Positions 1-31,936 of a stretch of DNA of 32,517 nucleotides are shown piece after piece. Position numbers and translations under genes: made by a program. The notes below the pieces were generated by a model. That model was not told where the DNA came from, searched no databases, and worked only from the letters and a program-made list of their open reading frames with translations. The stretch lies in the IMG/VR virus record IMGVR_UViG_2718218100_000008, one strand, 5' to 3'. Numbering within the stretch: the first letter of the stretch is position 1; each line of letters starts with the position of its first letter. The DNA is from a virus (taxonomy: Duplodnaviria > Heunggongvirae > Uroviricota > Caudoviricetes).

Positions 1-1143
1 CTATGCTGTTTTGATATCTACGATAATCCAGTCTTTACCACGATCATCATTGTATCGGTCGGTCATTTTTCTGGATTTATGACCTAACAACTTTTGCGTA
101 TCCAGACCCTGTTCCCGATATAACCGTTCTGACAGAGATCGCTGCTCATGAAATGTGGGCGCAGTTCCTTGCTCCCATTTTATGCCACATTTTTCCCTGG
201 CCTTTTTAAAAGCCGTTGTAAGAGTATTTGCAGACACCTGGTCTCCTCTGTTTGCTTGAGAGGTAGTGTGACGGTAATGGACCAGATATTTACTAACAAC
301 AGCATCCCTGCACTGAGATATAACTTCACGAAGGGTAATATTCAGAGCATCGCATTTCAGGTTAAGCGGAATAGCAAGTTTTGAACCGGTTTTTTCCTGA
401 GTAATGTGCAACATGTCGTCCCAGATATCAGAGAATTTCAAATTGCAGATATCGCTTAAACGTTGTCCAGTGACAAGAGCAAGTAGCATCCCGCATTTTA
501 AATAGGGCTGCCGTCTGCTTACGCTGTCAAATATTGCCTGCCATTCGGGCAGTGATAATCTTTGGCGGTTTACTCGATTTCGCGGTTGTTTTGTTGCCTG
601 CGCTGGGTTAAATCCTGGCGGAACATGTCCTGCGTGTTGTGCTTCTTTGAAGACGTCGATCAACACCATTCTCACGACTTGCGCCATCCTGTTATGACCT
701 TCAGCCTTTACAGCATCAATTATTTCGGCAATATCAAGTGCGGTAATATCCTTGAGGTGTTGCATTCCACAATGCTCACGGAAAAGACGGATGGGTTTGC
801 CTTTTTGCCGATAGGAGTTGGGTCTTAGTTCATTATGTTGCAGCCTGTCCTCCTGGATAGAATTATATTTATCAAGCCATTCTGTCACCGTAATGTCTGA
901 GCGCCTGCCTTTCATTCTTTCCAGACGCTCATTGACGCTTAATATTTGTCGGGTACGTTGTTCAGCAATAATGGTATTTGCTTCAGTAGCAACTTGTTTT
1001 GCTTCATTCTCATCAGTTCCTAAGCTATGAAAACGACCGGATAGTGGATGTTTGTATTGCCAATATACCTTTCCGGTTCGCTTATCTAATTTGCAATATA
1101 AATTGGGTATAGAGATTTTGTGAGATCGGGGGCTAGCAGCCAT
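1..1143 (-). CDS. int: Phage tyrosine integrase (site-specific recombinase), complete; stop codon at window positions 1-3
   Basis: 380-aa ORF; C-terminal catalytic region shows the H-x-x-R (TFHEQRSLSERLY) and terminal Tyr (KSRKMTDRY) pattern of tyrosine recombinases; 11-bp overlap with the upstream excisionase-like ORF; sits at the prophage end. Confidence 0.9.
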   Translation of the reverse strand: MAASPRSHKISIPNLYCKLDKRTGKVYWQYKHPLSGRFHSLGTDENEAKQVATEANTIIAEQRTRQILSVNERLERMKGRRSDITVTEWLDKYNSIQEDRLQHNELRPNSYRQKGKPIRLFREHCGMQHLKDITALDIAEIIDAVKAEGHNRMAQVVRMVLIDVFKEAQHAGHVPPGFNPAQATKQPRNRVNRQRLSLPEWQAIFDSVSRRQPYLKCGMLLALVTGQRLSDICNLKFSDIWDDMLHITQEKTGSKLAIPLNLKCDALNITLREVISQCRDAVVSKYLVHYRHTTSQANRGDQVSANTLTTAFKKAREKCGIKWEQGTAPTFHEQRSLSERLYREQGLDTQKLLGHKSRKMTDRYNDDRGKDWIIVDIKTA

Positions 1144-1369
1144 CAGCGATTATCCGTTGGAGTTTTGGGTTTGCGTTTATTGGGAGTTGCGGTTCTGCAA
1201 GCGTTCCTACAAAACGGGAATTTCGGTCAATCATCCAGTAGCGACCAACTTTTATAGCGGGTGGGGCCATCATTTTCCCTTGCGCGTATTTTTTCAGAAC
1301 TCGCTCACTTGGTGCTAAGTCCCCAAATTCTTCTTTAGCCCAGTCCCGTAAAGTGATTAGTCGAGACAT
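1133..1369 (-). CDS. xis: Excisionase-like small DNA-binding protein
   Basis: 78-aa ORF directly upstream of and overlapping int on the same strand, the classic xis-int arrangement; family assignment from recalled similarity to lambdoid prophage excisionases. Confidence 0.7.
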   Translation of the reverse strand: MSRLITLRDWAKEEFGDLAPSERVLKKYAQGKMMAPPAIKVGRYWMIDRNSRFVGTLAEPQLPINANPKLQRIIADGC

Positions 1370-1472
1370 TTGTCCTCCTCTTAGCTGCTGAGGGAGTTTG
1401 TGACCGATATATCTGACATGATATTAAGCTCATGGCAGGTACATCTCTTGACTGGTCATAGAGATAAATTTA

Positions 1473-2297
1473 ATGCTGAGAAATGCAGTATTGAATTTAT
1501 CAATTTTTCACCAGCTTCTGGTCTTTCTGGCTGTCATGCGCAAAACATATGGCTTTAATAAAAAACTGGATTGGGTTAGCAACGAGCAACTTTCCGAATT
1601 AACCGGGATATTGCCGCACAAGTGTTCTGCTGCAAAAAGTGTTCTGGTAAAGCGTGGGATTTTTATTCAGAGCGGGCGGAATACCGGCATTAATAATGTG
1701 GTCAGTGAATGGTCAACATTACCCGAATCAGGTAAGAAAAATAAAGTTTACCTGAAAGAGGTAAATTTACCTGAATCAGGTAAAAAAAGTTTACCCAAAT
1801 CAGGTAAAGGCGTTTACCCGAATCAGGTAAACACAAAAGACAAACTAACAAAAGACAATATAAAACCTTTTTCGTCCGAGAATTCTGGCGAATCCTCTGA
1901 CCAACCAGAAAACGATCTTCCTGTGGTGAAACCGGATGCTGCAATTCAGAGCGGCAGCAAGTGGGGGACAGCAGAAGACCTGACCGCCGCAGAGTGGATG
2001 TTTGACATGGTGAAGACCATCGCGCCATCAGCCAGAAAACCGAATTTTGCAGGGTGGGCTAACGATATCCGCCTGATGCGTGAACGTGACGGACGTAACC
2101 ACCGCGACATGTGCGTGCTGTTCCGCTGGGCATGCCAGGACAACTTCTGGTCCGGTAACGTGCTAAGTCCGGCCAAACTCCGCGACAAGTGGACCCAGCT
2201 CGAAATCAACCGTAACAAGCAACAGGCAGGCATGATAGCCAGCAAACCAAAACTCGACCTGACAAACACTGACTGGATTTACGGGGTGGATTTATGA
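1473..2297 (+). CDS. O: Replication initiation protein O; C-terminal half matches lambda O as recalled, N-terminal iteron-binding part diverged and apparently shortened
   Basis: 274-aa ORF; C-terminus (TKDNIKP...NFAGWANDIRLMRERDGRNHRDMCVLFRWACQDNFWSGNVLSPAKLRDKWTQLEINRNKQQAG...TDWIYGVDL) matches lambda O; an in-frame TGA at 1449-1451 prevents any upstream extension; stop overlaps the P start (ATGA). Confidence 0.85.
   Translation: MLRNAVLNLSIFHQLLVFLAVMRKTYGFNKKLDWVSNEQLSELTGILPHKCSAAKSVLVKRGIFIQSGRNTGINNVVSEWSTLPESGKKNKVYLKEVNLPESGKKSLPKSGKGVYPNQVNTKDKLTKDNIKPFSSENSGESSDQPENDLPVVKPDAAIQSGSKWGTAEDLTAAEWMFDMVKTIAPSARKPNFAGWANDIRLMRERDGRNHRDMCVLFRWACQDNFWSGNVLSPAKLRDKWTQLEINRNKQQAGMIASKPKLDLTNTDWIYGVDL
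1719..1831. repeat. Replication origin iterons: five direct repeats of a ~19-bp palindromic unit (TTTACC-N7-GGTAAA) inside the O gene, followed by an A/T-rich block (1832-1870)
   Basis: Repeat copies read at 1719-1735, 1747-1765, 1766-1784, 1790-1808 and 1813-1831; lambdoid origins are known to lie inside O as iterons followed by an AT-rich unwinding region. Confidence 0.8.
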
Positions 2298-2995
2298 AAA
2301 ACATCGCCGCACAGATGGTTAACTTTGACCGTGAGCAGATGCGTCGGATCGCCAACAACATGCCGGAACAGTACGACGAAAAGCCGCAGGTACAGCAGGT
2401 AGCGCAGATCATCAACGGTGTGTTCAGCCAGTTACTGGCAACTTTCCCGGCGAGTCTGGCTAACCGTGACCAGAACGAACTGAACGAAATCCGCCGCCAG
2501 TGGGTTCTGGCTTTCCGGGAAAACGGGATCACCACAATGGAACAGGTTAACGCAGGAATGCGCGTAGCCCGTCGGCAGAATCGACCATTTCTGCCATCAC
2601 CCGGGCAGTTTGTTGCATGGTGCCGGGAAGAAGCATCCGTTATCGCCGGACTGCCAAACGTCAGCGAGCTGGTTGATATGGTTTACGAGTATTGCCGGAA
2701 GCGTGGCCTGTATCCGGATGCAGAGTCTTATCCGTGGAAATCGAACGCGCATTACTGGTTGGTTACCAACTTGTACCAGAACATGCGGGCCAATGCGCTG
2801 ACTGACGCGGAATTACGGCGCAAGGCTGCCGATGAACTGACCTGTATGACAGCGCGAATTAACCGTGGTGAGACGATACCTGAACCAGTAAAACAACTTC
2901 CTGTTATGGGCGGTAGACCTCTAAATCGTGCACAGGCTCTGGCGAAGATCGCAGAAATTAAAGCTAAGTTCGGACTGAAAGGAGCAAGTGTATGA
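2294..2995 (+). CDS. P: Replication protein P (DnaB helicase loader)
   Basis: 233-aa ORF matching lambda P along its length as recalled (MKNIAAQMVNFDREQMRRIANNMPEQYDEKPQVQQ...KAKFGLKGASV); ATGA overlap with O. Confidence 0.95.
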   Translation: MKNIAAQMVNFDREQMRRIANNMPEQYDEKPQVQQVAQIINGVFSQLLATFPASLANRDQNELNEIRRQWVLAFRENGITTMEQVNAGMRVARRQNRPFLPSPGQFVAWCREEASVIAGLPNVSELVDMVYEYCRKRGLYPDAESYPWKSNAHYWLVTNLYQNMRANALTDAELRRKAADELTCMTARINRGETIPEPVKQLPVMGGRPLNRAQALAKIAEIKAKFGLKGASV

Positions 2996-3294
2996 CGGGC
3001 AAAGAGGCAATTATTCATTACCTGGGGACGCATAAGAGCTTCTGTGCACAGGACGTTGCCGCGGTAACAGGTGCAACCGTAACCAGCATAAATCAGGCTG
3101 CGGCTAAAATGGCGCGGGCAGGAATCCTGGTCGTTGATGGTAAGGTCTGGCGAACGGTGTATTACCGGTTCGCTACCAGAGAAGAACGGGAAGGAAAGGT
3201 GAGCACGAATCTGATTTTTAAGGAGTGTCGCCAGAGTGCCGCGATGAAACGGGTATTGAGGGTATATAAAAGAACATCAATGGGTACACAATGA
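2992..3294 (+). CDS. ren: Ren protein with a divergent C-terminal tail
   Basis: 100-aa ORF; the first ~85 residues match lambda Ren (MTGKEAIIHYLGTH...FATREEREGK...KECRQSAAMKRVL), after which the sequence diverges at the edge of the emrE island; ATGA overlap with P. Confidence 0.8.
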   Translation: MTGKEAIIHYLGTHKSFCAQDVAAVTGATVTSINQAAAKMARAGILVVDGKVWRTVYYRFATREEREGKVSTNLIFKECRQSAAMKRVLRVYKRTSMGTQ

Positions 3295-3311
3295 TGAAAC
3301 AGGTGAGTTGA

Positions 3312-3346
3312 GTTCAAACTGTAGTACAATTCTCTCCAGTTTGAAC
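3312..3346. promoter_or_regulatory. Perfect 10-bp inverted repeat (GTTCAAACTG / CAGTTTGAAC, 15-nt spacer) about 15 bp upstream of the emrE start
   Basis: Read directly from the sequence; candidate operator or RNA hairpin; no T-run follows, so not a typical intrinsic terminator. Confidence 0.3.
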
Positions 3347-3361
3347 AGGAAAGAATATGTT

Positions 3362-3694
3362 ATGAACCCTTATATTTATCTTGGTGGTGCAATACTTGCA
3401 GAGGTCATTGGTACAACCTTAATGAAGTTTTCAGAAGGTTTTACACGGTTATGGCCATCTGTTGGTACAATTATTTGTTATTGTGCATCATTCTGGTTAT
3501 TAGCTCAGACGCTGGCTTATATTCCTACAGGGATTGCTTATGCTATCTGGTCAGGAGTCGGTATTGTCCTGATTAGCTTACTATCATGGGGGTTTTTCGG
3601 CCAACGGCTGGACCTGCCAGCCGTTATAGGCATGATGTTGATTTGTGCCGGTGTGTTGGTTATTAATTTATTGTCACGAAGCACACCACATTAA
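3362..3694 (+). CDS. emrE: Small multidrug resistance (SMR) efflux transporter EmrE
   Basis: 110-aa product MNPYIYLGGAILAEVIGTTLMKFSEGF...LLSRSTPH matches E. coli EmrE as recalled; four hydrophobic helices; first in-frame ATG chosen at 3362 (the ORF-track start at 3308 is an upstream extension). Confidence 0.9.
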   Translation: MNPYIYLGGAILAEVIGTTLMKFSEGFTRLWPSVGTIICYCASFWLLAQTLAYIPTGIAYAIWSGVGIVLISLLSWGFFGQRLDLPAVIGMMLICAGVLVINLLSRSTPH

Positions 3695-3938
3695 AAATAA
3701 TTTCTTTTAAAAGACTGCAATATGGCGGTTCATATCTTTACATGGGCCGCTTTTGTTAATGTTTTTAGTTTTTGTGTATTCTTTTGTGCCTTCAAGATTA
3801 TTGCGTAAGCAAATTGCAATACGATTATTGTTGTATATTCAAGATAGTGTGATCGTAATTGTCTTTTTAAATAAAAATTAAACAAAAATTATATCTCACC
3901 ACTAAGGTTTATAAAAGCATAAGTTAGCAGGTGTCACC

Positions 3939-5465
3939 ATGAAAAAAGCCATAGCATATATGCGATTTTCATCACCAGGTCAGATGTCTGGCGACTCATT
4001 AAACCGACAGAGAAGACTTATTGCTGAATGGTTAAAGGTAAATAGTGATTATTATCTTGATACCATAACATATGAAGATTTAGGATTAAGTGCATTCAAA
4101 GGAAAGCATGCACAATCAGGAGCTTTTTCGGAATTTTTAGATGCTATAGAGCATGGTTATATATTGCCAGGAACTACATTGTTAGTTGAAAGTCTGGACA
4201 GACTTTCAAGAGAAAAAGTCGGTGAAGCGATTGAACGTCTGAAATTGATTTTGAATCACGGTATTGATGTTATAACTCTTTGCGACAATACAGTCTATAA
4301 TATTGACTCTTTGAATGAGCCATATTCATTAATAAAAGCCATACTTATAGCACAAAGGGCAAATGAAGAAAGCGAGATAAAGTCAAGTCGGGTTAAATTA
4401 TCATGGAAGAAAAAACGGCAGGATGCACTGGAATCAGGTACGATTATGACGGCGTCTTGTCCGAGATGGCTCTCCTTAGATGACAAAAGAACGGCTTTTG
4501 TTCCAGACCCCGACAGGGTGAAAACTATTGAGCTAATTTTTAAACTCAGGATGGAAAGGCGCTCATTGAATGCAATAGCCAAGTATTTAAATGATCATGC
4601 TGTAAAGAATTTCTCAGGAAAAGAAAGTGCATGGGGGCCTTCTGTAATTGAAAAATTATTAGCGAATAAAGCTCTGATAGGTATATGCGTACCTTCATAT
4701 CGTGCAAGAGGGAAAGGGATAAGTGAAATCGCTGGCTATTATCCCAGAGTCATATCAGATGATTTGTTTTACGCTGTACAGGAAATTCGGTTGGCACCTT
4801 TTGGTATTAGCAATAGTAGCAAGAATCCTATGCTAATAAATCTACTTCGAACAGTTATGAAGTGTGAGGCTTGTGGTAATACCATGATTGTTCATGCGGT
4901 ATCTGGAAGTTTGCATGGCTATTATGTTTGTCCGATGAGAAGATTACATCGATGTGACAGGCCATCAATAAAGAGAGATTTGGTTGATTATAATATCATT
5001 AATGAATTGCTTTTTAATTGTAGCAAAATTCAACCAGTTGAAAACAAGAAAGATGCTAATGAAACTTTAGAGTTAAAAATTATTGAGCTTCAGATGAAAA
5101 TTAATAATTTAATCGTTGCATTGTCTGTCGCGCCTGAAGTTACCGCTATAGCAGAGAAAATAAGACTATTAGATAAGGAATTACGAAGAGCTTTGGTATC
5201 ATTGAAAACTTTGAAGAGTAAAGGTGTAAATTCATTCAGTGATTTTTATGCTATTGACTTAACCAGTAAAAATGGACGAGAGTTATGCCGTACACTTGCC
5301 TATAAAATATTCGAAAAAATCATAATTAATACGGATAATAAAACCTGTGATATCTATTTTATGAATGGCATTGTTTTTAAACACTATCCTTTAATGAAAG
5401 TAATATCCGCCCAGCAGGCGATAAGTGCTCTCAAATATATGGTTGATGGTGAGGTTTATTTTTGA
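3939..5465 (+). CDS. ybcK: Large serine recombinase (resolvase/invertase-type N-terminal catalytic domain plus recombinase domain and zinc ribbon)
   Basis: 508-aa ORF; N-terminal motif AIAYMRFSSPGQ with candidate catalytic Ser; later Cys cluster CEACGN...YYVCPMRRLHRCD typical of large serine recombinase zinc ribbons; AT-rich codon usage; same emrE-adjacent position as ybcK in DLP12. Confidence 0.85.
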   Translation: MKKAIAYMRFSSPGQMSGDSLNRQRRLIAEWLKVNSDYYLDTITYEDLGLSAFKGKHAQSGAFSEFLDAIEHGYILPGTTLLVESLDRLSREKVGEAIERLKLILNHGIDVITLCDNTVYNIDSLNEPYSLIKAILIAQRANEESEIKSSRVKLSWKKKRQDALESGTIMTASCPRWLSLDDKRTAFVPDPDRVKTIELIFKLRMERRSLNAIAKYLNDHAVKNFSGKESAWGPSVIEKLLANKALIGICVPSYRARGKGISEIAGYYPRVISDDLFYAVQEIRLAPFGISNSSKNPMLINLLRTVMKCEACGNTMIVHAVSGSLHGYYVCPMRRLHRCDRPSIKRDLVDYNIINELLFNCSKIQPVENKKDANETLELKIIELQMKINNLIVALSVAPEVTAIAEKIRLLDKELRRALVSLKTLKSKGVNSFSDFYAIDLTSKNGRELCRTLAYKIFEKIIINTDNKTCDIYFMNGIVFKHYPLMKVISAQQAISALKYMVDGEVYF

Positions 5466-5818
5466 GTAATAATCACTTTTTCAACCGTGCTATGGTATGA
5501 AAGTAAAGTAACTACTATGATATTAACTATCGAGCAAGAATATCCCCAGGCACTCAACAGGGCGCAGGTCAACGTGAATCGGTCATGACACGACACCGAT
5601 TTTGCGGAATCAATGTTGCTTATGAATACAACATCCCGCTTAGTACATGTTCAACACATCAGCAAATTTTGAACTGGGTGTGGCACTTAACTGAAAAAAC
5701 ATGGATGACACAAAATGTTACTCGTCGCTTCATTGAAGTAGCTTGTGGATATCACAAGCTAGACTATCGCCAATGATATTCAATTTTTGATTTTTTAGTA
5801 TCAACCTTCCATAATAAT

Positions 5819-5847
5819 GTCACCGGAGCTTGAACAACTCCGGTGAC
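5819..5847. other. Perfect 10-bp inverted repeat GTCACCGGAG-N9-CTCCGGTGAC (strong hairpin or dimeric protein-binding site)
   Basis: Read directly from the sequence; lies in the unassigned spacer between the recombinase gene and ninB; flanking T-runs are weak, so terminator function is uncertain. Confidence 0.4.
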
Positions 5848-5871
5848 TTCTGCGCATTTAAGGGGACTTAA

Positions 5872-5970
5872 ATGCGACCACAATCTGAACTCCTTACCTT
5901 GTCACAGATGCAGAAATGCACCTGCGATGTCTTGCATCCAGCGTTTGATCTCTGCGGAGGTGAAGCGTGA
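5872..5970 (+). CDS. Small ORF (32 aa, [32 protein letters not shown]), possibly ylcH-like
   Basis: ATG preceded by an AAGGGGA Shine-Dalgarno-like motif; stop overlaps the GTG start of ninB/ybcN (GTGA); too short to judge by sequence alone. Confidence 0.3.
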
Positions 5971-6422
5971 ACCTCCCACAAGATGGCATCAAATTACATC
6001 GCGGTAACTTCACCGCTGTCGGTCAGCAGATCCAGACTTATCTGGAAGACGGCAAATGCTTTCGCATGGTGCTTAAACCGTGGCGCGAGAGACGCAGTCT
6101 TTCCCAGAATGCACTCAGCCACATGTGGTACAGCGAAATCAGTGAATACCTCATCAGCAGGGGGAAATCGTTCGCTACTTCAGCATGGGTAAAAGATGCT
6201 CTCAAACACACATACCTCGGTTATGAAACCAAGGACCTGGTTGATGTCGTAACCGGCGAAATCACTACTATCCAGTCGTTACGCCATACCTCCGATCTTG
6301 GTACCGGAGAGATGTATGTCTTCCTGTGTAAGGTTGAAGCCTGGGCGATGAATATTGGCTGCCACCTGACTATTCCACAGAGCTGCGAGTTCCAGCTGCT
6401 GCGTGACAAGCAGGAGGCGTAA
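5967..6422 (+). CDS. ybcN: NinB (Orf) family recombination protein, YbcN-like
   Basis: 151-aa ORF with GTG start; contains the [13 protein letters not shown] motif that resembles lambda NinB; position at the head of the nin block. Confidence 0.8.
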
Positions 6423-6592
6423 TGGCTACACCGCTTATTCGTGTCATGAACGGACACATCTACAAAGTACCAAATCGTCGTAAGCGTAAACCTGAGCTGA
6501 AGCCATCCGAAATACCAACACTGCTCGGATATACCGCCAGCCTGGTTGATAAAAAATGGTTGCGACTGGCAGCAAGGAGGAATCATGGCTGA
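6422..6592 (+). CDS. ninE: NinE family small basic protein (56 aa; below the ORF-track length cutoff)
   Basis: Translated by hand: [56 protein letters not shown]; TAATG overlap with ybcN and ATGGCTGA overlap with ybcO. Confidence 0.7.
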   Translation: MATPLIRVMNGHIYKVPNRRKRKPELKPSEIPTLLGYTASLVDKKWLRLAARRNHG

Positions 6593-6875
6593 TTTGAGAA
6601 AAGCAGCGCGTAGTCGGGAATGCCAAGTAAGAATCCCTGGCGTATGTAATGGCAACCCTGAAACGTCTGTACTGGCACATATCCGGCTGACTGGATTGTG
6701 CGGCACCGGTACCAAACCGCCAGACTTGATTGCCACCATTGCATGTTCTGCCTGCCACGACGAAATCGACCGCCGCACACATTTTGTCGATGCTGCATAT
6801 GCAAAAGAATGCGCGCTGGAAGGTATGGCGAGAACACAGGTTATCTGGCTGAAAGAGGGGGTTATTAAGGCGTGA
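6585..6875 (+). CDS. ybcO: YbcO-like Cys-rich protein (DUF1364 family, putative nuclease)
   Basis: 96-aa product starting [28 protein letters not shown]; conserved Cys/His positions; start chosen at the second in-frame ATG by recalled homologue length. Confidence 0.75.
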
Positions 6876-7234
6876 ATACCTACAGCATCACATTACCCTG
6901 GCCTCCGAGCAATAATCGCTACTACCGGCATAATCGCGGGCGCACGCACATCAGCGCAGAAGGGCAGGCATACCGTGATAACGTCGCCCGAATCATCAAA
7001 GGCTCCATGCTGGATATCGGCCTGGCTATGCCAGTGAAAATCCGTATTGAGTGCCACATGCCGGATCGCCGTCGCCGTGACCTGGATAATCTGCAAAAAG
7101 CCGCTTTTGACGCACTCACCAAAGCAGGTTTCTGGCTGGATGATGCTCAGGTCGTTGATTACCGTGTTGTGAAGATGCCCGTTACCAAAGGTGGGAAGCT
7201 GGAGCTGACCATCACCGAACTGGGGAATGAATGA
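6872..7234 (+). CDS. rusA: Holliday junction resolvase RusA
   Basis: 120-aa ORF; RusA-like sequence with acidic residues in [30 protein letters not shown]; nin-region position. Confidence 0.9.
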
Positions 7235-7371
7235 TGTTTGAGTCTTATATGGCAGAACGTCTTCGCCACCGCTGGATGCGCCTGCGCTTATATCGTTTTC
7301 CTGGTTCTGTTTTGACCGATTACCGGATACTGAAGAATTACGCCAAAACACTGAAAGGAGCTGCCGCATGA
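7231..7371 (+). CDS. ylcG: Small ORF (46 aa, [46 protein letters not shown]), ylcG-like
   Basis: Fills the gap between rusA and the Q-position gene with start/stop overlaps on both sides; below the ORF-track cutoff. Confidence 0.45.
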
Positions 7372-8057
7372 ATACCCAATATTTACAGTATGTCCGCGAG
7401 CAACTCATTGTGGCTACCGCTGATTTGAGCGGAGCAACGAAAGGACAGCTTGAAGCCTGGCTGGAGCATGCACAATTTGATACTGGTACATACAAACGAA
7501 AGAAGCCGCGCATTCTGGATGAGGTAACTGGCAGGATGATTACGCTGGATAATCCGCCGATTTCCGGTAAGCAGTCGTACGCAAAAGGTTCATCCATTGC
7601 ACTGGTCAGCCAGGTTGAGTTCTCAACCTCGTCATGGCGCCGCGCGGTTCTGTCTCTCGAAGAACATCAGAAAGCGTGGTTGCTGTGGAGTTACAGCGAA
7701 AGTGTTCGCTGGGAACATCAGGTCACCATAACGCAGTGGGCATGGAGCGAGTTTAAGACTCTGTTGGGTACCAGGAAAATTGCAGGTAAGACACTGGAAC
7801 GTTTGAAGAAGTTGATCTGGCTGGCGGCACAGGATGTGAAGAACGAGCTGGCAGGGCGTAAGACCTATGAATACCAGGAGCTGGCATCACTGGTGGGAGT
7901 GACATCAAAAAACTGGTCTGAGACATTTACTGAACGCTGGGTTGCAATGAAACACATTTTTCTACAGCTTGATAGCCAAGCTTTATTGCTTTTAACGAAA
8001 ACACGTTCAAAACAAAAGACCACATTTTCACAGCAAGATATTGCAAAACTGGATTAA
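7368..8057 (+). CDS. Putative late-gene antiterminator (Q-position protein), not the lambda Q family
   Basis: 229-aa ORF in the position where lambdoid phages encode Q (after the nin genes, before the lysis cassette); contains no cysteine, so it lacks the Zn-finger of lambda Q; helix-turn-helix-like segment YQELASLVGVTSKNWSETF; call is by synteny. Confidence 0.5.
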   Translation: MNTQYLQYVREQLIVATADLSGATKGQLEAWLEHAQFDTGTYKRKKPRILDEVTGRMITLDNPPISGKQSYAKGSSIALVSQVEFSTSSWRRAVLSLEEHQKAWLLWSYSESVRWEHQVTITQWAWSEFKTLLGTRKIAGKTLERLKKLIWLAAQDVKNELAGRKTYEYQELASLVGVTSKNWSETFTERWVAMKHIFLQLDSQALLLLTKTRSKQKTTFSQQDIAKLD

Positions 8058-8069
8058 AAATCATATATT
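8041..8069 (+). promoter_or_regulatory. Candidate late promoter (pR'-like): -35 TTGCAA (8041-8046), 17-bp spacer, -10 TATATT (8064-8069)
   Basis: Sigma-70-like hexamers read directly; overlaps the 3-prime end of the Q-position gene as in lambda; predicted start ~8077 gives a ~190-nt leader to the terminator at 8239-8264. Confidence 0.3.
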
Positions 8070-8124
8070 TTATGTAAATCTGATATTTTGCCAATGTTGT
8101 ACGCACTGGCAGTAATCCAAATTC

Positions 8125-8160
8125 AAGCCCGAGGTTTAAAGCCTTGGGCTTTTCTGTTTC
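8125..8160 (+). terminator. Intrinsic terminator-like hairpin (AAGCCCGAGG / CCTTGGGCTT with one G-U pair) followed by TTTCTGTTTC
   Basis: Stem, loop and U-rich tail read directly from the sequence. Confidence 0.45.
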
Positions 8161-8238
8161 TGAACGGTGAGTAGCCTTCCAACCTACCCCAGCCAGGGGG
8201 TCTTCAGCTGTTGAGTTGATATTGCTTAGCCCTCTGTT

Positions 8239-8264
8239 GCCAGCTACATGCTGGCTTTTTTATT
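8239..8264 (+). terminator. Intrinsic terminator (GCCAGC-TACAT-GCTGGC followed by TTTTTTATT), candidate tR'
   Basis: Stem-loop plus T-run read directly; located ~100 bp upstream of the holin start. Confidence 0.55.
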
Positions 8265-8378
8265 CCAGGCTTGTGGGGAGCATCAACTCCGTGCTTTGTC
8301 GTTAAATTACCCCGTGAGCCTGATTTCTGACATTTAACGTCCCGGCCTTTTGTCGGCGGCGAAACATTGGCTATTCAT

Positions 8379-8684
8379 ATGCACGAAAAAGAGAGCCTTG
8401 CCGGAGCGTTCTGGCTCGTTTTGCTGATCATCGCAGGTTGGGGCGGTCTGGTCCGCTACCTGATAGATGTGAAGCAGAGTAAAGCAACGTGGAGTTGGAT
8501 AAATGCTCTGGCTCAAATAGTGGTATCAGGATTCACCGGTGTTATTGGTGGCCTGATCAGCATCGAAAGTGGATTCAGTATTTACATGATTCTCGCGACA
8601 GCGGGGATTAGTGGTGCGATGGGTTCGGTTGCACTGACGTACTTCTGGGAACGACTGACAGGGGTGAAAAATGCAAAATCTTAA
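8379..8684 (+). CDS. Putative holin with three predicted transmembrane segments; not lambda S
   Basis: ORF immediately upstream of and overlapping the endolysin gene; three hydrophobic stretches (FWLVLLIIAGWGGLV, WINALAQIVVSGFTGVIGGLISI, IYMILATAGISGAMGSVALTY) and a short charged C-terminus; first ATG at 8379, a possible TTG start at 8367 would add 4 residues. Confidence 0.6.
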   Translation: MHEKESLAGAFWLVLLIIAGWGGLVRYLIDVKQSKATWSWINALAQIVVSGFTGVIGGLISIESGFSIYMILATAGISGAMGSVALTYFWERLTGVKNAKS

Positions 8685-9147
8685 TCCTCAGCGTAAAGCC
8701 TTCCTCGATATGTTGGCGTGGTCAGAAGGAACGGATAACGGGCGACAACCGACACGTAACCACGGTTATGATGTTATTGTTGGCGGCGAACTGTTTACTG
8801 ATTACTCCGATCACCCTCGCAAACTTGTCACGCTACACCCCAAACTCAAATCAACAGCCGCCGGACGTTATCAGCTTCTTTCACGCTGGTGGGATGCTTA
8901 CCGTAAACAGCTTGGTTTGAAAGACTTCTCCCCCAAAAGCCAGGACGCAGTGGCATTGCAGCAGATTAAAGAGCGTGGTGCTTTACCTATGATTGATCGC
9001 GGTGATATCCGTCAGGCAATCGACCGTTGCAGTAATATCTGGGCTTCACTGCCGGGCGCTGGTTATGGTCAGTTCGAGCATAAGGCTGACAGCCTGATTG
9101 CAAAATTCAAAGAAGCTGGCGGAACGGTCAGAGAGAGTGAGGTATGA
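8671..9147 (+). CDS. R: Endolysin R (lytic transglycosylase)
   Basis: 158-aa ORF matching lambda R as recalled except the first ~7 residues ([20 protein letters not shown]...[11 protein letters not shown]). Confidence 0.95.
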
Positions 9148-19657: not shown

Positions 19658-20235
19658 ATGGCCATAAAAGGTCTTGAGCAGGCCGTTGAAAACCTCAGTC
19701 GTATCAGCAAAACGGCGGTGCCTGGTGCGTCAGCAATGGCCATTAACCGCGTTGCTTCATCCGCGATATCGCAGTCGGCGTCACAGGTTGCCCGTGAGAC
19801 AAGGGTACGCCGGAAACTGGTAAAGGAAAGGGCCAGGCTGAAAAGGGCCACGGTTAAAAATCCGCAGGCAGAATCAAGGTTAACCGGGGGGATTTGCCCG
19901 TAATCAAGCTGGGTAACGCGCGGGTTGTCCTGTCCCGACGCAGGCGTCGTAAAAAGGGGCAGCGTTCATCCCTGAAAGGTGGCGGCAGCGTGCTTGTGGT
20001 GGGAAACCGTCGTATTCCCGGCGCGTTTATTCAGCAACTGAAAAATGGCCGGTGGCATGTCATGCAGCGTGTGGCCGGGAAAAACCGTTACCCCATTGAT
20101 GTGGTGAAAATCCCGATGGCGGTGCCGCTGACCACGGCGTTTAAACAGAATATTGAGCGGATACGGCGTGAACGTCTTCCGAAAGAGCTGGGCTATGCGC
20201 TGCAGCATCAACTGAGAATGGTAATAAAGCGATGA
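19658..20235 (+). pseudogene. Z: Tail completion gene Z disrupted by a single-base deletion (frameshift near 19870)
   Basis: Two ORF-track pieces (19658-19903 and 19894-20235) together reproduce lambda Z; reading frame A gives ...KNPQAESRLTGGICP-stop, while frame B from 19870 gives RIKVNRGDLPVIKLGNARVVLSRRRRRKKGQ... as in lambda. Confidence 0.8.
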
Positions 20236-21813: not shown

Positions 21814-22229
21814 GTTTTGCCCTGAAACTGGCGCGCGAGATGGGGCGACCCGACTGGCGTGCCATGCTTGCCGGGATGTCATCCACGGAGTATGCCGACT
21901 GGCACCGCTTTTACAGTACCCATTATTTTCATGATGTTCTGCTGGATATGCACTTTTCCGGGCTGACGTACACCGTGCTCAGCCTGTTTTTCAGCGATCC
22001 GGATATGCATCCGCTGGATTTCAGTCTGCTGAACCGGCGTGAGGCTGACGAAGAGCCTGAAGATGATGTGCTGATGCAGAAAGCGGCAGGGCTTGCTGGA
22101 GGCGTTCGTTTTGGCCCGGACGGGAATGAAGTTATCCCCGCTTCCCCGGATGTGGCGGACATGACGGAGGATGACGTAATGCTGATGACAGTATCAGAAG
22201 GGATCGCAGGAGGAGTCCGGTATGGCTGA
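21795..22229 (+). CDS. T: T portion of the G-T frameshift fusion chaperone (expressed only as a fusion by -1 frameshifting from G)
   Basis: -1 frame ORF continuing from the slippery site; matches lambda T as recalled. Confidence 0.85.
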   Translation: MFDGELSFALKLAREMGRPDWRAMLAGMSSTEYADWHRFYSTHYFHDVLLDMHFSGLTYTVLSLFFSDPDMHPLDFSLLNRREADEEPEDDVLMQKAAGLAGGVRFGPDGNEVIPASPDVADMTEDDVMLMTVSEGIAGGVRYG

Positions 22230-22815
22230 ACCGGTAGGCGATCTGGTCGTTGATTTAAGTCTGGATGCGGCCAGATTTGACGAGCAGATGGCCAGAGTCA
22301 GGCGTCATTTTTCCGGTACGGAAAGTGATGCGAAAAAAACAGCGGCAGTCGTTGAACAGTCGATGAGCCGGCAGGCGCTGGCTGCACAGAAAGCGGGAAT
22401 TTCCGTCGGGCAGTATAAAGCCGCCATGCGTATGCTGCCTGCGCAGTTCACTGACGTGGCCACGCAGCTTGCAGGTGGGCAAAGTCCGTGGCTGATCCTG
22501 CTGCAACAGGGGGGGCAGGTGAAGGACTCCTTCGGCGGGATGATCCCCATGTTCCGGGGGCTTGCCGGTGCGATCACCCTGCCGATGGTGGGGGCCACCT
22601 CGCTGGCGGTGGCGACCGGTGCGCTGGCGTATGCCTGGTATCAGGGCAACTCAACCCTGTCCGATTTCAACAAAACGCTGGTCCTTTCCGGCAATCAGGC
22701 CGGGCTGACGGCAGATCGTATGCTGGTCCTGTCCAGAGCCGGGCAGGCGGCAGGGCTGACGTTTAACCAGACCAGCGAGTCACTCAGCGCAGAGTTTGAA
22801 CAGGTGGTGAACTGA
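22222..22815 (+). pseudogene. H: Tape-measure gene H remnant: about 190 N-terminal codons fused in frame to the last ~7 codons of M; the rest of H and almost all of M are deleted
   Basis: 197-aa ORF matches the lambda H N-terminus through ...LTFNQTSESLSA and then reads EFEQVVN-stop, which is the C-terminus of lambda M; the junction at ~22786-22792 lies in a short AGCGCA stretch; L follows immediately (TGATG). Confidence 0.85.
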
Positions 22816-28356: not shown

Positions 28357-28956
28357 ATGCGTAAACTTTATGCCGCCATTTTGTCCGCAGCCATTTGTCT
28401 GGCCGTATCCGGTGCGCCTGCATGGGCATCTGAACATCAGTCCACGCTGAGCGCGGGGTATCTTCATGCCCGGACCAACGTTCCCGGCAGTGATGATCTG
28501 AACGGGATTAACGTGAAATACCGTTATGAGTTTACGGATACGCTGGGGCTGGTGACGTCATTCAGCTATGCAGGAGACAAGAATCGCCAGCTGACCCGTT
28601 ACAGCGATACCCGCTGGCATGAAGATTCCGTGCGTAACCGCTGGTTCAGCGTGATGGCGGGGCCGTCTGTGCGCGTGAATGAATGGTTCAGCGCGTATGC
28701 GATGGCGGGTATGGCTTACAGCCGTGTTTCGACTTTTTCCGGGGATTACCTTCGCGTAACTGACAACAAGGGGAAAACGCACGATGTGCTGACCGGAAGT
28801 GATGACGGTCGCCACAGCAACACGTCTCTGGCGTGGGGGGCTGGCGTGCAGTTTAACCCGACCGAATCCGTGGCCATTGATATTGCTTATGAAGGTTCTG
28901 GCAGTGGTGACTGGCGCACTGACGGGTTCATCGTGGGTGTTGGTTATAAATTCTGA
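28357..28956 (+). CDS. lom: Outer membrane beta-barrel protein Lom (Ail/Lom family)
   Basis: 199-aa ORF with signal peptide; matches lambda Lom as recalled; C-terminal ...GVGYKF. Confidence 0.95.
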   Translation: MRKLYAAILSAAICLAVSGAPAWASEHQSTLSAGYLHARTNVPGSDDLNGINVKYRYEFTDTLGLVTSFSYAGDKNRQLTRYSDTRWHEDSVRNRWFSVMAGPSVRVNEWFSAYAMAGMAYSRVSTFSGDYLRVTDNKGKTHDVLTGSDDGRHSNTSLAWGAGVQFNPTESVAIDIAYEGSGSGDWRTDGFIVGVGYKF

Positions 28957-28982
28957 TTAGCCAGGTAACACAGTGTTATGAC

Positions 28983-29009
28983 AGCCCGCCGGTTCAGGCG
29001 GGCTTTTTT
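28983..29009 (+). terminator. Intrinsic terminator after lom (AGCCCGCC-GGTTCA-GGCGGGCT followed by TTTTTT)
   Basis: 8-bp perfect stem plus T-run read directly. Confidence 0.65.
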
Positions 29010-29020
29010 GTGGGGTGAAT

Positions 29021-31936
29021 ATGGCAGTAAAGATTTCAGGTGTACTGAAAGACGGCACAGGAAAACCGGTACAGAACTGCACAATCCAGCTGAAAGCAAA
29101 ACGTAACAGTACCACGGTGGTGGTGAACACGCTGGCCTCAGAAAATCCGGATGAAGCCGGGCGTTACAGCATGGACGTTGAGTACGGTCAGTACAGCGTT
29201 ATTCTGTTGGTGGAAGGGTTCCCGCCGTCACATGCCGGGACCATCACCGTGTATGAAGATTCTCAACCCGGTACGCTGAATGATTTTCTTGGTGCCATGA
29301 CTGAGGATGATGTCCGTCCGGAGGCACTGCGCCGTTTTGAGCTGATGGTGGAAGAGGTGGCGCGTAACGCGTCCGCGGTGGCACAGAACACGGCAGCCGC
29401 GAAGAAGTCAGCCAGCGATGCCAGCACATCAGCCCGTGAGGCGGCAACCCATGCGACTGATGCTGCGGACTCAGCACGCGCAGCCAGCACGTCAGCCGGA
29501 CAGGCCGCGTCGTCGGCTCAGTCAGCGTCTTCCAGCGCAGGAACGGCATCAACAAAGGCTACTGAAGCATCAAAAAGTGCTGCCGCTGCAGAGTCCTCAA
29601 AAAGCGCGGCGGCTACCAGTGCCGGTGCGGCGAAAACGTCAGAAACGAATGCGGCAGTGTCACAACAATCAGCCGCCACTTCTGCATCCACCGCGACCAC
29701 GAAAGCGTCAGAAGCTGCCTCCTCAGCCAGGGATGCGTCGGCTTCAAAAGAGGCGGCAAAATCATCAGAAACGAGCGCAGCCTCGAGCGCCAGTAGTGCA
29801 GCCTCCTCGGCAACGGCGGCAGGCAATTCCGCGAAGGCGGCCAAAACGTCTGAGACAAACGCTAAGTCCTCTGAAACGGCAGCAGAACAGAGTGCCTCCG
29901 CAGCAGCAGGCTCAAAAACAGCGGCTGCATTATCTGCCAGTGCCGCGTCAACAAGTGCCGGGCAGGCCTCAGCCAGTGCCACCGCCGCCGGAAAATCGGC
30001 AGAAAGTGCCGCATCGTCTGCTTCAACAGCCACAACGAAGGCTGGCGAAGCCACTGAACAGGCCAGCGCAGCAGCGAGTTCTGCTTCCGCAGCGAAGACA
30101 TCCGAAACGAACGCGAAAGCGTCGGAAACCAGCGCAGAATCCTCAAAAACGGCTGCCGCATCGTCAGCCAGTTCGGCGGCGTCATCGGCATCATCTGCGT
30201 CTGCTTCAAAAGATGAGGCGACCAGACAAGCGTCAGCAGCGAAGAGCAGCGCCACGACGGCATCCACGAAGGCGACAGAGGCAGCTGGTAGTGCGACGGC
30301 AGCAGCTCAGAGCAAAAGTACGGCGGAATCTGCAGCAACGCGCGCTGAGACAGCGGCAAAACGGGCAGAGGATATTGCATCCGCCGTGGCGCTTGAGGAT
30401 GCGAGCACGACGAAAAAGGGGATAGTACAGCTCAGCAGTGCGACTAACAGCACTTCCGAGTCACTGGCGGCAACGCCAAAAGCCGTTAAGGCCGCGTATG
30501 AGCTGGCTAACGGGAAATACACCGCACAGGATGCAACGACAGCACAGAAAGGGATAGTTCAGCTTAGCAACGCGACCAACAGCACATCTGAAATGCTGGC
30601 GGCAACGCCAAAGTCGGTAAAGGCAGCCTATGACCTTGCTAACGGGAAATATACTGCTCAGGACGCTACGACAGCACAAAAAGGAATTGTCCAGCTCAGT
30701 AGTGCAACCAACAGCGCATCTGAAACGCTTGCCGCGACACCGAAAGCAGTGAAAGCAGCTAATGATAATGCGAATGGTCGGGTACCTTCTGCCCGTAAGG
30801 TGAATGGTAAGGCGCTTTCATCGGATATAACACTGACGCCGAAAGATATTGGTACGCTTAACTCAACAACAATGTCATTCAGCGGTGGTGCTGGTTGGTT
30901 CAAATTAGCAACGGTAACCATGCCACAGGCGAGTTCTGTTGTTTCAATTACGTTGATTGGTGGCGCGGGATTTAACGTGGGGTCACCTCAACAGGCAGGT
31001 ATATCTGAACTTGTTTTGCGTGCAGGTAATGGTAATCCGAAGGGGATTACTGGTGCTTTATGGCAGCGCACATCGACAGGGTTTACAAATTTTGCCTGGG
31101 TCAATACATCTGGTGATACTTACGATATTTACGTTGCAATCGGAAATTATGCGACTGGTGTAAATATTCAATGGGATTATACCAGTAATGCCAGCGTGAC
31201 GATTCATACGTCACCAGCATATTCTGCTAATAAGCCGGAAGGGTTAACGGACGGTACAGTTTATTCACTCTATACGCCATCAGAGCAGTTTTATCCGCCT
31301 GGCGCACCAATCCCGTGGCCATCAGATACCGTTCCGTCTGGCTATGCCCTGATGCAGGGGCAGACTTTTGACAAATCTGCATACCCGAAACTTGCAGCCG
31401 CTTATCCGTCAGGCGTGATCCCTGATATGCGTGGCTGGACGATTAAGGGCAAACCTGCCAGTGGTCGGGCCGTATTGTCTCAGGAACAGGACGGCATTAA
31501 ATCGCACACCCACAGCGCCAGCGCATCCAGTACGGATTTGGGGACGAAAACCACATCGTCGTTTGATTACGGCACTAAATCCACGAATAACACCGGGGCG
31601 CACACGCACAGTGTGAGCGGTACAGCCGCAAGTGCCGGAAACCATACTCATAGTGTCACAGGCGCATCAGCAGTCAGCCAGTGGTCACAAAATGGGTCAG
31701 TACATAAGGTAGTGTCTGCGGCCAGTGTGAATACAAGTGCTGCAGGAGCGCACACTCATAGTGTCAGCGGCACAGCTGCATCTGCAGGTGCTCACGCACA
31801 TACTGTCGGTATTGGTGCTCATACGCACTCTGTTGCGATTGGCTCACATGGACACACCATCACCGTTAACGCTGCGGGTAACGCGGAAAACACTGTCAAA
31901 AACATCGCATTTAACTACATTGTGAGGCTTGCATAA
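29021..31936 (+). CDS. stf: Side tail fibre protein Stf, full-length single ORF
   Basis: N-terminus [26 protein letters not shown]... and C-terminus with HxH repeats ending ...[22 protein letters not shown] match the recalled full-length Stf of the original lambda isolate; long Ala/Ser/Thr-rich central region; ATG at 29021 preferred over the upstream GTG. Confidence 0.9.
30407..30760 (+). repeat. Three in-frame tandem repeats (about 129-132 bp each) inside stf
   Basis: Repeat units start at 30407, 30536 and 30668; they encode TT(A)(Q/K)KGIVQLS(S/N)ATNS(T/A)SE(S/M/T)LAATPK(A/S)VKAA...; the third copy diverges after ~31 codons. Confidence 0.8.

Follow-up and report, generated by a model that had tools for sequence, protein, structure and literature searches.

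The window analysed here, i.e. the whole stretch of 32,517 nt of the Caudoviricetes record IMGVR_UViG_2718218100_000008, carries an integrase- and an excisionase-encoding gene at its left end, followed on the opposite strand by a lambda-type replication region. The features that define this region, together with the late antiterminator gene located further downstream, were as follows.

1–1143, minus strand: integrase of the phage 21 type (icd site), 380 aa; ORF annotated by PGAP as 'site-specific integrase', its flank being 99.2% identical in Lambda_4C10 and phage 21
1133–1369, minus strand: excisionase (xis), 78 aa, intact; Pfam Exc (PF07825), E 3.7e-5; PGAP 'excisionase'
1370–1509, no strand: spacer of the parental phage between xis and the DUF4222 stop codon, representing the left flank of the probable deletion; identity with phage records
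1463–1508, plus strand: hairpin followed by a T-run; predicted terminator-like site, fold energy
1473–1508, plus strand: 12 apparently fortuitous leader codons (MLRNAVLNLSIF) fused to the O remnant and consisting of DNA of the xis flank
1509–1510, no strand: probable deletion junction sharing a single base (C at 1509); both flanks compared base by base
1509–2297, plus strand: O remnant, corresponding to codons 78–339 of a 4C10-type O; PGAP, Pfam and alignment
1719–1835, no strand: five iterons, TTACC(C/T)GAATCAGGTAA, followed by an A-rich stretch (1833–1862); repeat family with 5 copies
2294–2995, plus strand: replication protein P, 233 aa, intact; Pfam Phage_lambda_P, positions 1–162 of 162, E 9.5e-62; PGAP
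2992–3294, plus strand: ren, 100 aa, intact; PGAP 'protein ren', collinear with 4C10
7368–8057, plus strand: late antiterminator Q (PF06323), 229 aa, intact; Pfam Phage_antiter_Q, positions 1–217 of 220, E 1.4e-94

The next gene after ren on the plus strand was shown to be emrE. As described in the original prediction, the start of xis (1369) and that of an O-like ORF (1473) are separated by only about 100 bp, both ORFs being recovered here (1133–1369 on the minus strand and 1473–2297), and a TGA stop codon could be read directly at 1449–1451, in frame with the ORF start (1473−1449=24).

Identity and distribution of the prophage

The region spanning positions 1100–2400 of the window was found to be 100% identical to E. 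coli O157:H7 chromosomes, and the rest of the window exhibited 99.7–99.97% identity to EDL933, the exceptions being a deletion of 2,274 bp and an indel of 1 nt. According to PGAP, icd is followed in EDL933 by int and then xis, the integrase being encoded directly downstream of icd, and the int–xis side of the window is 99.3% identical to the phage 21 int-xis-icd record M61865. The integration site of Sakai prophage Sp8 in O157 is likewise icd (PMC8190617), and the window element combines this site with an integrase and excisionase of the phage 21 type. As its gene content also agrees with the published Q (Z1874) and Bor (Z1878) of CP-933X (PMC10789677, PMC3210124) and with the Sp8 catalase ECs1652, which corresponds to the catalase gene located at the right end of the prophage in EDL933, the element is, as judged from its sequence, the Sakai prophage Sp8, equivalent to CP-933X of EDL933, at the icd site of E. 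coli O157:H7. Consistent with Table 1 of PMC2669165, neither a CI/Cro pair nor general recombination genes were present. The conservation of all morphogenesis genes that has been published for Sakai Sp8 does not extend to the window copy, in which the tape-measure/M region has suffered a deletion and the gpZ-like gene is split (see below), a deviation that is strain- or assembly-specific and does not affect the identity of the element. The accessory genes emrE, bor, lom and that encoding catalase are still present.

The xis|O junction was detected in 295 of 5,426 complete E. coli genomes and was identical in all 295; among the matches listed, the junction-bearing genomes were O157:H7. The prophage would appear to be locked in the chromosome and to be passed on vertically within the O157:H7 lineage. 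That the junction merely represents an assembly artefact, i.e. a collapse between repeated prophage sequences, is vanishingly unlikely: long near-identical stretches are indeed common to O157 prophages, and the source assembly may hold errors elsewhere as the tape-measure deletion of the window occurs in no complete genome, but the 295 genomes are independent and include long-read assemblies, and an Sp8-like prophage at icd is present in published long-read O157 assemblies (PMC8190617).

The element itself and its missing immunity region have been published, and the pseudogene status of O is part of the PGAP annotation. New aspects are the position of the breakpoint (1509|1510), the use of extant functional phages to reconstruct the deleted segment, and the finding that the first 12 codons of the O-like ORF are not derived from O.

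Deletion junction between xis and O

The left flank (1100–1509) matched 27 phage records (phage 21 and 26 others) at 99.3–99.5% identity, with the matches ending at window position 1509. From position 1509 onwards, the right flank exhibited 97–99% identity to the full-length O genes of Lambda_4C10, 4A7, 1W, 3W, Perceval, PhiR phages including PhiR34_1, and others. In the Lambda_4C10 record, the left match stops at 30569 and the right match begins at 37655, so that 7,086 bp are missing from the window relative to this phage (7,086–7,265 bp across relatives); base-by-base identity to 4C10 amounted to 99.2% over 1,508 nt on the left and 97.3% over 1,791 nt on the right. In at least seven sequenced phages, both flanks are present with identical order and orientation, approximately 7.1 kb apart. 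Since one and the same set of functional phage genomes is matched by the two flanks, in a collinear manner and at this distance, a chance pattern can be dismissed.

The left breakpoint corresponds to the end of DUF4222, the gene next to xis in the parental phage (the end of the DUF4222 CDS of 4C10 being equivalent to window position 1509), and the right breakpoint to codon 77/78 of a 339-codon O gene. The base equivalent to window position 1509 is also where the PGAP pseudogene starts in EDL933. The original prediction was correct in that the recombination and immunity region is absent, yet had placed the breakpoint in the gap between the two ORFs (1370–1472), whereas the junction is located at 1509|1510, within the O-like ORF and beyond the interval considered at that time (1370–1480).

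This arrangement very probably reflects a single illegitimate deletion of approximately 7.1 kb in a lambdoid prophage located adjacent to icd. The ancestor would have resembled the functional phages Lambda_4C10 and 4A7, with a presumed layout of phage-21-type int/xis, an exo-xis region, exo/RecT/gam/kil, cI-cro-cII and O-P-ren-emrE; since lambdoid phages are mosaic, the true ancestor may differ from 4C10 in the length and gene content of the deleted segment. The deletion would have fused the base just past the DUF4222 stop codon to O codon 78 via a one-base microhomology, and would have removed in one event the cI/cro switch with its divergent early promoters, cII, the recombination genes and O codons 1–77. 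The 274-aa ORF would then be an accident, with an ATG codon of the spacer lying by chance in frame with the O remnant.

Alternatively, the junction could have arisen by illegitimate recombination between two prophages or phages, one contributing the int-xis module and the other the O-P module. Such an origin is suggested by the unequal identity of the two flanks to 4C10 (99.2% versus 97.3%), by the mosaicism of lambdoid genomes (e.g. the Q-lysis module of the window is unrelated to that of 4C10) and by the many lambdoid prophages found in O157, but is considered very unlikely, as the existence of at least seven phages holding both flanks about 7.1 kb apart makes an intramolecular deletion the most parsimonious explanation. 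The end result is identical for both routes.

Gene content of the deleted segment

When compared with 4C10, the segment very probably lost by internal deletion comprises DUF4222, a DksA-like zinc-finger gene and three small genes, followed by genes encoding an exonuclease (exo), a RecT-type annealing protein, gam and kil, two accessory genes (an ASCH-domain gene and a gene encoding a 353-aa protein), and genes specifying a CI-like repressor (HTH and S24 peptidase), a cro-like repressor and a cII-like (YdaT) protein. A tblastn search with the 16 deleted products against the whole 32.5-kb window returned no homologue (best E 0.026), a Pfam scan of the small or unannotated ORFs of the window revealed no HTH or repressor family, and the PGAP annotation of the entire EDL933 prophage contains none of the deleted early genes and no repressor-like gene. 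The loss of the recombination and immunity region proposed previously is thereby corroborated, exo/bet/gam, cI, cro and cII being absent between xis and O as well as elsewhere in the window, and the search for a cI- or cro-like HTH ORF that had been recommended yielded none by Pfam, PGAP or tblastn.

The accompanying claim that the element lacks an N antiterminator holds in so far as the early region is gone. However, no N-like ORF has been annotated or could be recognized in the deleted segment of 4C10 (kil-ASCH gap), which does not point to an ancestor of the N type, and the absence of N is for this reason ascribed to loss of the whole early control region rather than to that of a demonstrated N gene.

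Truncation of the O protein

The product of the O-like ORF (1473–2297, 274 aa) scored 69.6 bits against Pfam Phage_rep_O (PF04492; cut-off 28.7), covering positions 28–95 of the 95-position profile from ORF residue 13 onwards, whereas the parental O covers positions 1–95. PGAP designates the corresponding EDL933 gene as a pseudogene ('replication protein, incomplete, missing N-terminus'). ORF codons 1–12 (1473–1508) were shown to consist of xis-side spacer DNA, the flank 1370–1509 continuing the phage-21-type sequence at 99.2% identity, and the faint likeness of these codons to the O N-terminus is due to chance. BLASTP aligned ORF residues 13–274 with residues 48–299 of lambda O, and a lambda-type O from the database (P0056, 299 aa) gave the same register. 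Homology to lambda O consequently commences at lambda residue 48, equivalent to ORF residue 13, and not at approximately residue 28 as originally proposed. The lack of an O N-terminus itself was borne out, the truncation being larger than first described, with 27 of 95 Pfam domain positions and the most conserved N-terminal motif of the family lost.

The closest full-length relatives, which are annotated as 339 aa, possess 77 codons that the remnant lacks, or 47 if translation starts at the lambda-equivalent Met31. The protein is 94–96% identical to the full-length O of 4C10 and PhiR34_1, and among the homologues listed that are of approximately full length, most cover 94–96% of the query, excluding its first 12 residues, and two cover 100%. 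Alignment with 21 full-length relatives (297–339 aa) revealed that the lost part includes the nearly invariant RVADLDDGYTRIANELLEA (V52, A53, D57, G58, T60, R61, A63, N64 and L66); the conserved N-terminal origin-binding segment (R)VADLDDGYTRIANELLEA is present in all 21 relatives and absent from the remnant. A search of solved structures by sequence with full-length O retrieved no match. An AlphaFold2 model based on a 22-sequence alignment showed a mean pLDDT of 52.8 (50–68 in the N-terminal domain) and, at this low confidence, is suggestive of a first helix formed by residues 52–72, just upstream of the junction.

The remaining part of the gene is well preserved. The last ~143 residues of O exhibit three differences from lambda O, and no gap interrupts the alignment of the protein with those of 4C10 and PhiR34_1 across the iteron-encoded residues. 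The five iterons (1719–1835) are embedded in the gene, as is characteristic of an O-type initiator, with a spacing of 19–29 bp and with every copy representing an inverted repeat. Also retained in intact form are the HTH/wing portion of the domain, the C-terminal half that binds P, the iterons and the P gene. As the predicted first helix and the conserved motif of the origin-binding domain are gone, O function has presumably been lost.

A different reading would be that the 274-aa ORF represents a genuine, naturally short O protein that starts at the Met codon at 1473 and is still able to fire the origin. In favour of this, the ORF is open and has been deposited as a 'replication protein' on at least 999 contigs, its Pfam score exceeds the threshold, the iterons, P and the C-terminal half of O are intact, and Sp8 replication was scored as '+' in silico by Asadulghani et al. 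Nevertheless, this reading is highly improbable in view of the spacer origin of the first 12 codons, the pseudogene call by PGAP, and the fact that all 21 aligned full-length relatives extend further at the N-terminus and possess the nearly invariant motif that is lost here; moreover, no replication of Sp8 was observed experimentally (Asadulghani et al. 2009, PMC2669165).

The context of the start codon also argues against a naturally short O. The ATG at 1473 lies within the 5′ arm of a hairpin (1463–1501) of 16 pairs, which is AT-rich (−22.9 kcal/mol, z=−2.76) and followed by a T-run up to 1508; together these constitute a terminator-like element on the plus strand, inherited from the parental xis–DUF4222 spacer. 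A scan for sigma-70 consensus promoters on both strands of positions 1100–3500 detected none (shuffled sequences gave 3.4), a result with which transcription is still compatible.

A naturally short O of this type had been named as the finding that would overturn the original interpretation, and the two short forms belonging to the same 90% cluster (P0004 and P0006) were accordingly inspected; neither was found to be natural. The 269-aa form (P0004) results from a miscalled start at Met71 of an intact 339-codon O, the 70 upstream codons being open, and at its loci (L008–L011, 5791–6810) cI, cro and cII are present beside the full-length O gene. The 283-aa form (P0006) originates from a prophage at the ybhC site, in which an independent deletion has joined kil to O (kil|O).

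Functional consequences

In lambda, cI and cro are flanked by pL and pR, int and xis are expressed from pL and the cII-dependent pI, transcription from pR is needed for O/P expression and origin activation, and the iterons are bound by the N-terminal domain of O. By analogy, the deletion proposed here would have left nothing to repress or induce, would have deprived int and xis of pL and of cII-dependent pI activation, and would have deprived O of pR-driven expression and origin activation. Loss of the cI–cro interval and cII would in this way remove induction, excision and replication together, the truncation of O acting as a second block to replication. Similarly, Q would now be without the upstream pR region that normally drives its expression, pR being lost with the cI–cro interval. 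That the late genes require another route of expression, as suggested originally, is a reasonable inference.

These expectations are consistent with published data. Sakai Sp8 lacks CI/Cro and general recombination functions, and its circularization, replication and packaging were all negative (Asadulghani et al. 2009, PMC2669165), in line with the original description of a cryptic, non-inducible prophage. In array experiments, most non-induced prophages, Sp8 among them, showed no response to mitomycin C (PMC2669165). The same study predicted in silico that Sp8 is excisable and 'Replication +', scoring its replication genes as conserved (PMC2669165, Table 1). The discrepancy between this prediction and the negative experiments may be explained by the truncated O and the missing promoters: the failure of Sp8 to circularize despite intact int and xis would be due to the missing early promoters and cII, and the published score of a functional O is corrected here, as O is N-terminally truncated.

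It is conceivable, though improbable, that the element persists as a helper-dependent passenger, to which a 4C10/4A7-like phage with the same type of O and iterons, either co-resident or superinfecting, could provide O, early transcription and virions in trans. This notion derives from the fact that the origin (five iterons), P, Q, the terminase genes, int and xis have all been kept intact, and a full-length O of the same type has been recorded from O157 strains (P0021). If correct, it would imply mobilization of the emrE, bor, lom and catalase cargo. With respect to late gene expression, a Q–holin query (7368–8400) was partly matched at a second place in each O157 genome listed; if this second copy carries the same Q and target site, activation of the Sp8 late genes in trans would be possible.

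The internal deletion would account, at base resolution, for the inactivation of one of the 18 Sakai prophages. It conforms to the usual pattern of prophages being inactivated through loss of the induction module, does not open up new biology, and adds to DLP12 and the ybhC-site prophage one more early-region deletion that ends in the replication genes of this phage backbone.

Comparison with related phages and prophages

Lambda_4C10 and 4A7 (Bievrevirus), 1W, 3W and Perceval share with the window element the phage-21-type int/xis with an icd fragment and the O iteron type, as well as P, ren, emrE, ybcK, the nin region and most tail genes at 93–99% identity. Unlike the window element, these phages have kept the 7.1-kb exo-xis/recombination/immunity segment and a full-length O, and they possess a different Q-lysis module and right-arm cargo. 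Positions 5532–5808 and 7362–9143 of the window showed no match in Lambda_4C10. The spacer between ybcK and ybcN is replaced in the window, this position being occupied by an alpha/beta hydrolase gene in 4C10 and by ybcL/ybcM in K-12, and the Q–holin–lysozyme module is of a different type, with a 229-aa Q (PF06323) in the window versus a 127-aa Q in 4C10.

The backbone running from the 3′ end of P via ren, emrE, ylcJ, ybcK and ybcN to ylcG is also found in DLP12 of K-12 (93–99.5% identity), the stretch P′-ren-emrE-ybcK...ybcN-ninE-ybcO-rusA-ylcG being 93.5–99.5% identical over window positions 2684–7372 with one segment replaced. In DLP12, too, the early region has been deleted and int/xis abut a replication-gene fragment. 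In contrast to the window element, however, DLP12 resides at the argU site, its int/xis show no relationship to those of the window at the DNA level, an IS3 is present in its ren, and it has undergone a larger deletion (exoD′|peaD′), in which an exo fragment was kept and all of O plus two-thirds of P were lost. A blastn comparison of the window with K-12 positions 563500–578500 gave no match before window position 2684; the comparison with the DLP12 left arm that had been called for therefore revealed unrelated int/xis genes and a shared backbone only from inside P. Membership in DLP12 is ruled out by the icd site and by the absence of the intD/xisD argU arm and the exoD′|peaD′ junction, and the two scars represent independent events of the same kind.

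The prophage at the ybhC site (L012, 4868–5852; also L013) resembles the window element in its O type, in the deletion of the immunity region and in a right breakpoint within the 5′ part of O. Here, a kil fragment abuts O at approximately codon 62, generating the chimeric 283-aa ORF (P0006) mentioned above. It differs from the window element in its integrase and site, in a left breakpoint located within kil, and in the retention of exo/RecT/gam.

Other lesions in the window copy

Two lesions that are absent from EDL933 distinguish the window copy from Sp8/CP-933X. At positions 22784–22791 (ORF 22222–22815), 2,274 bp are missing compared with EDL933, with an 8-nt microhomology (TCAGCGCA); tape-measure codon ~190 is fused in frame to the last nine gpM codons, most of the tape-measure gene and gpM being gone. 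This tape-measure/M junction was found in none of the 5,426 complete RefSeq E. coli genomes, and the deletion is either strain-specific or an assembly error. At approximately position 19870, a 1-nt deletion relative to EDL933 splits a 579-bp gpZ-like tail gene into ORFs 19658–19903 and 19894–20235. Finally, 24 of the 26 substitutions that distinguish the right 9.7 kb from EDL933 cluster at positions 28593–29161, which encompass lom and the start of the tail-fibre gene, a distribution that looks like a recombination patch from another prophage.
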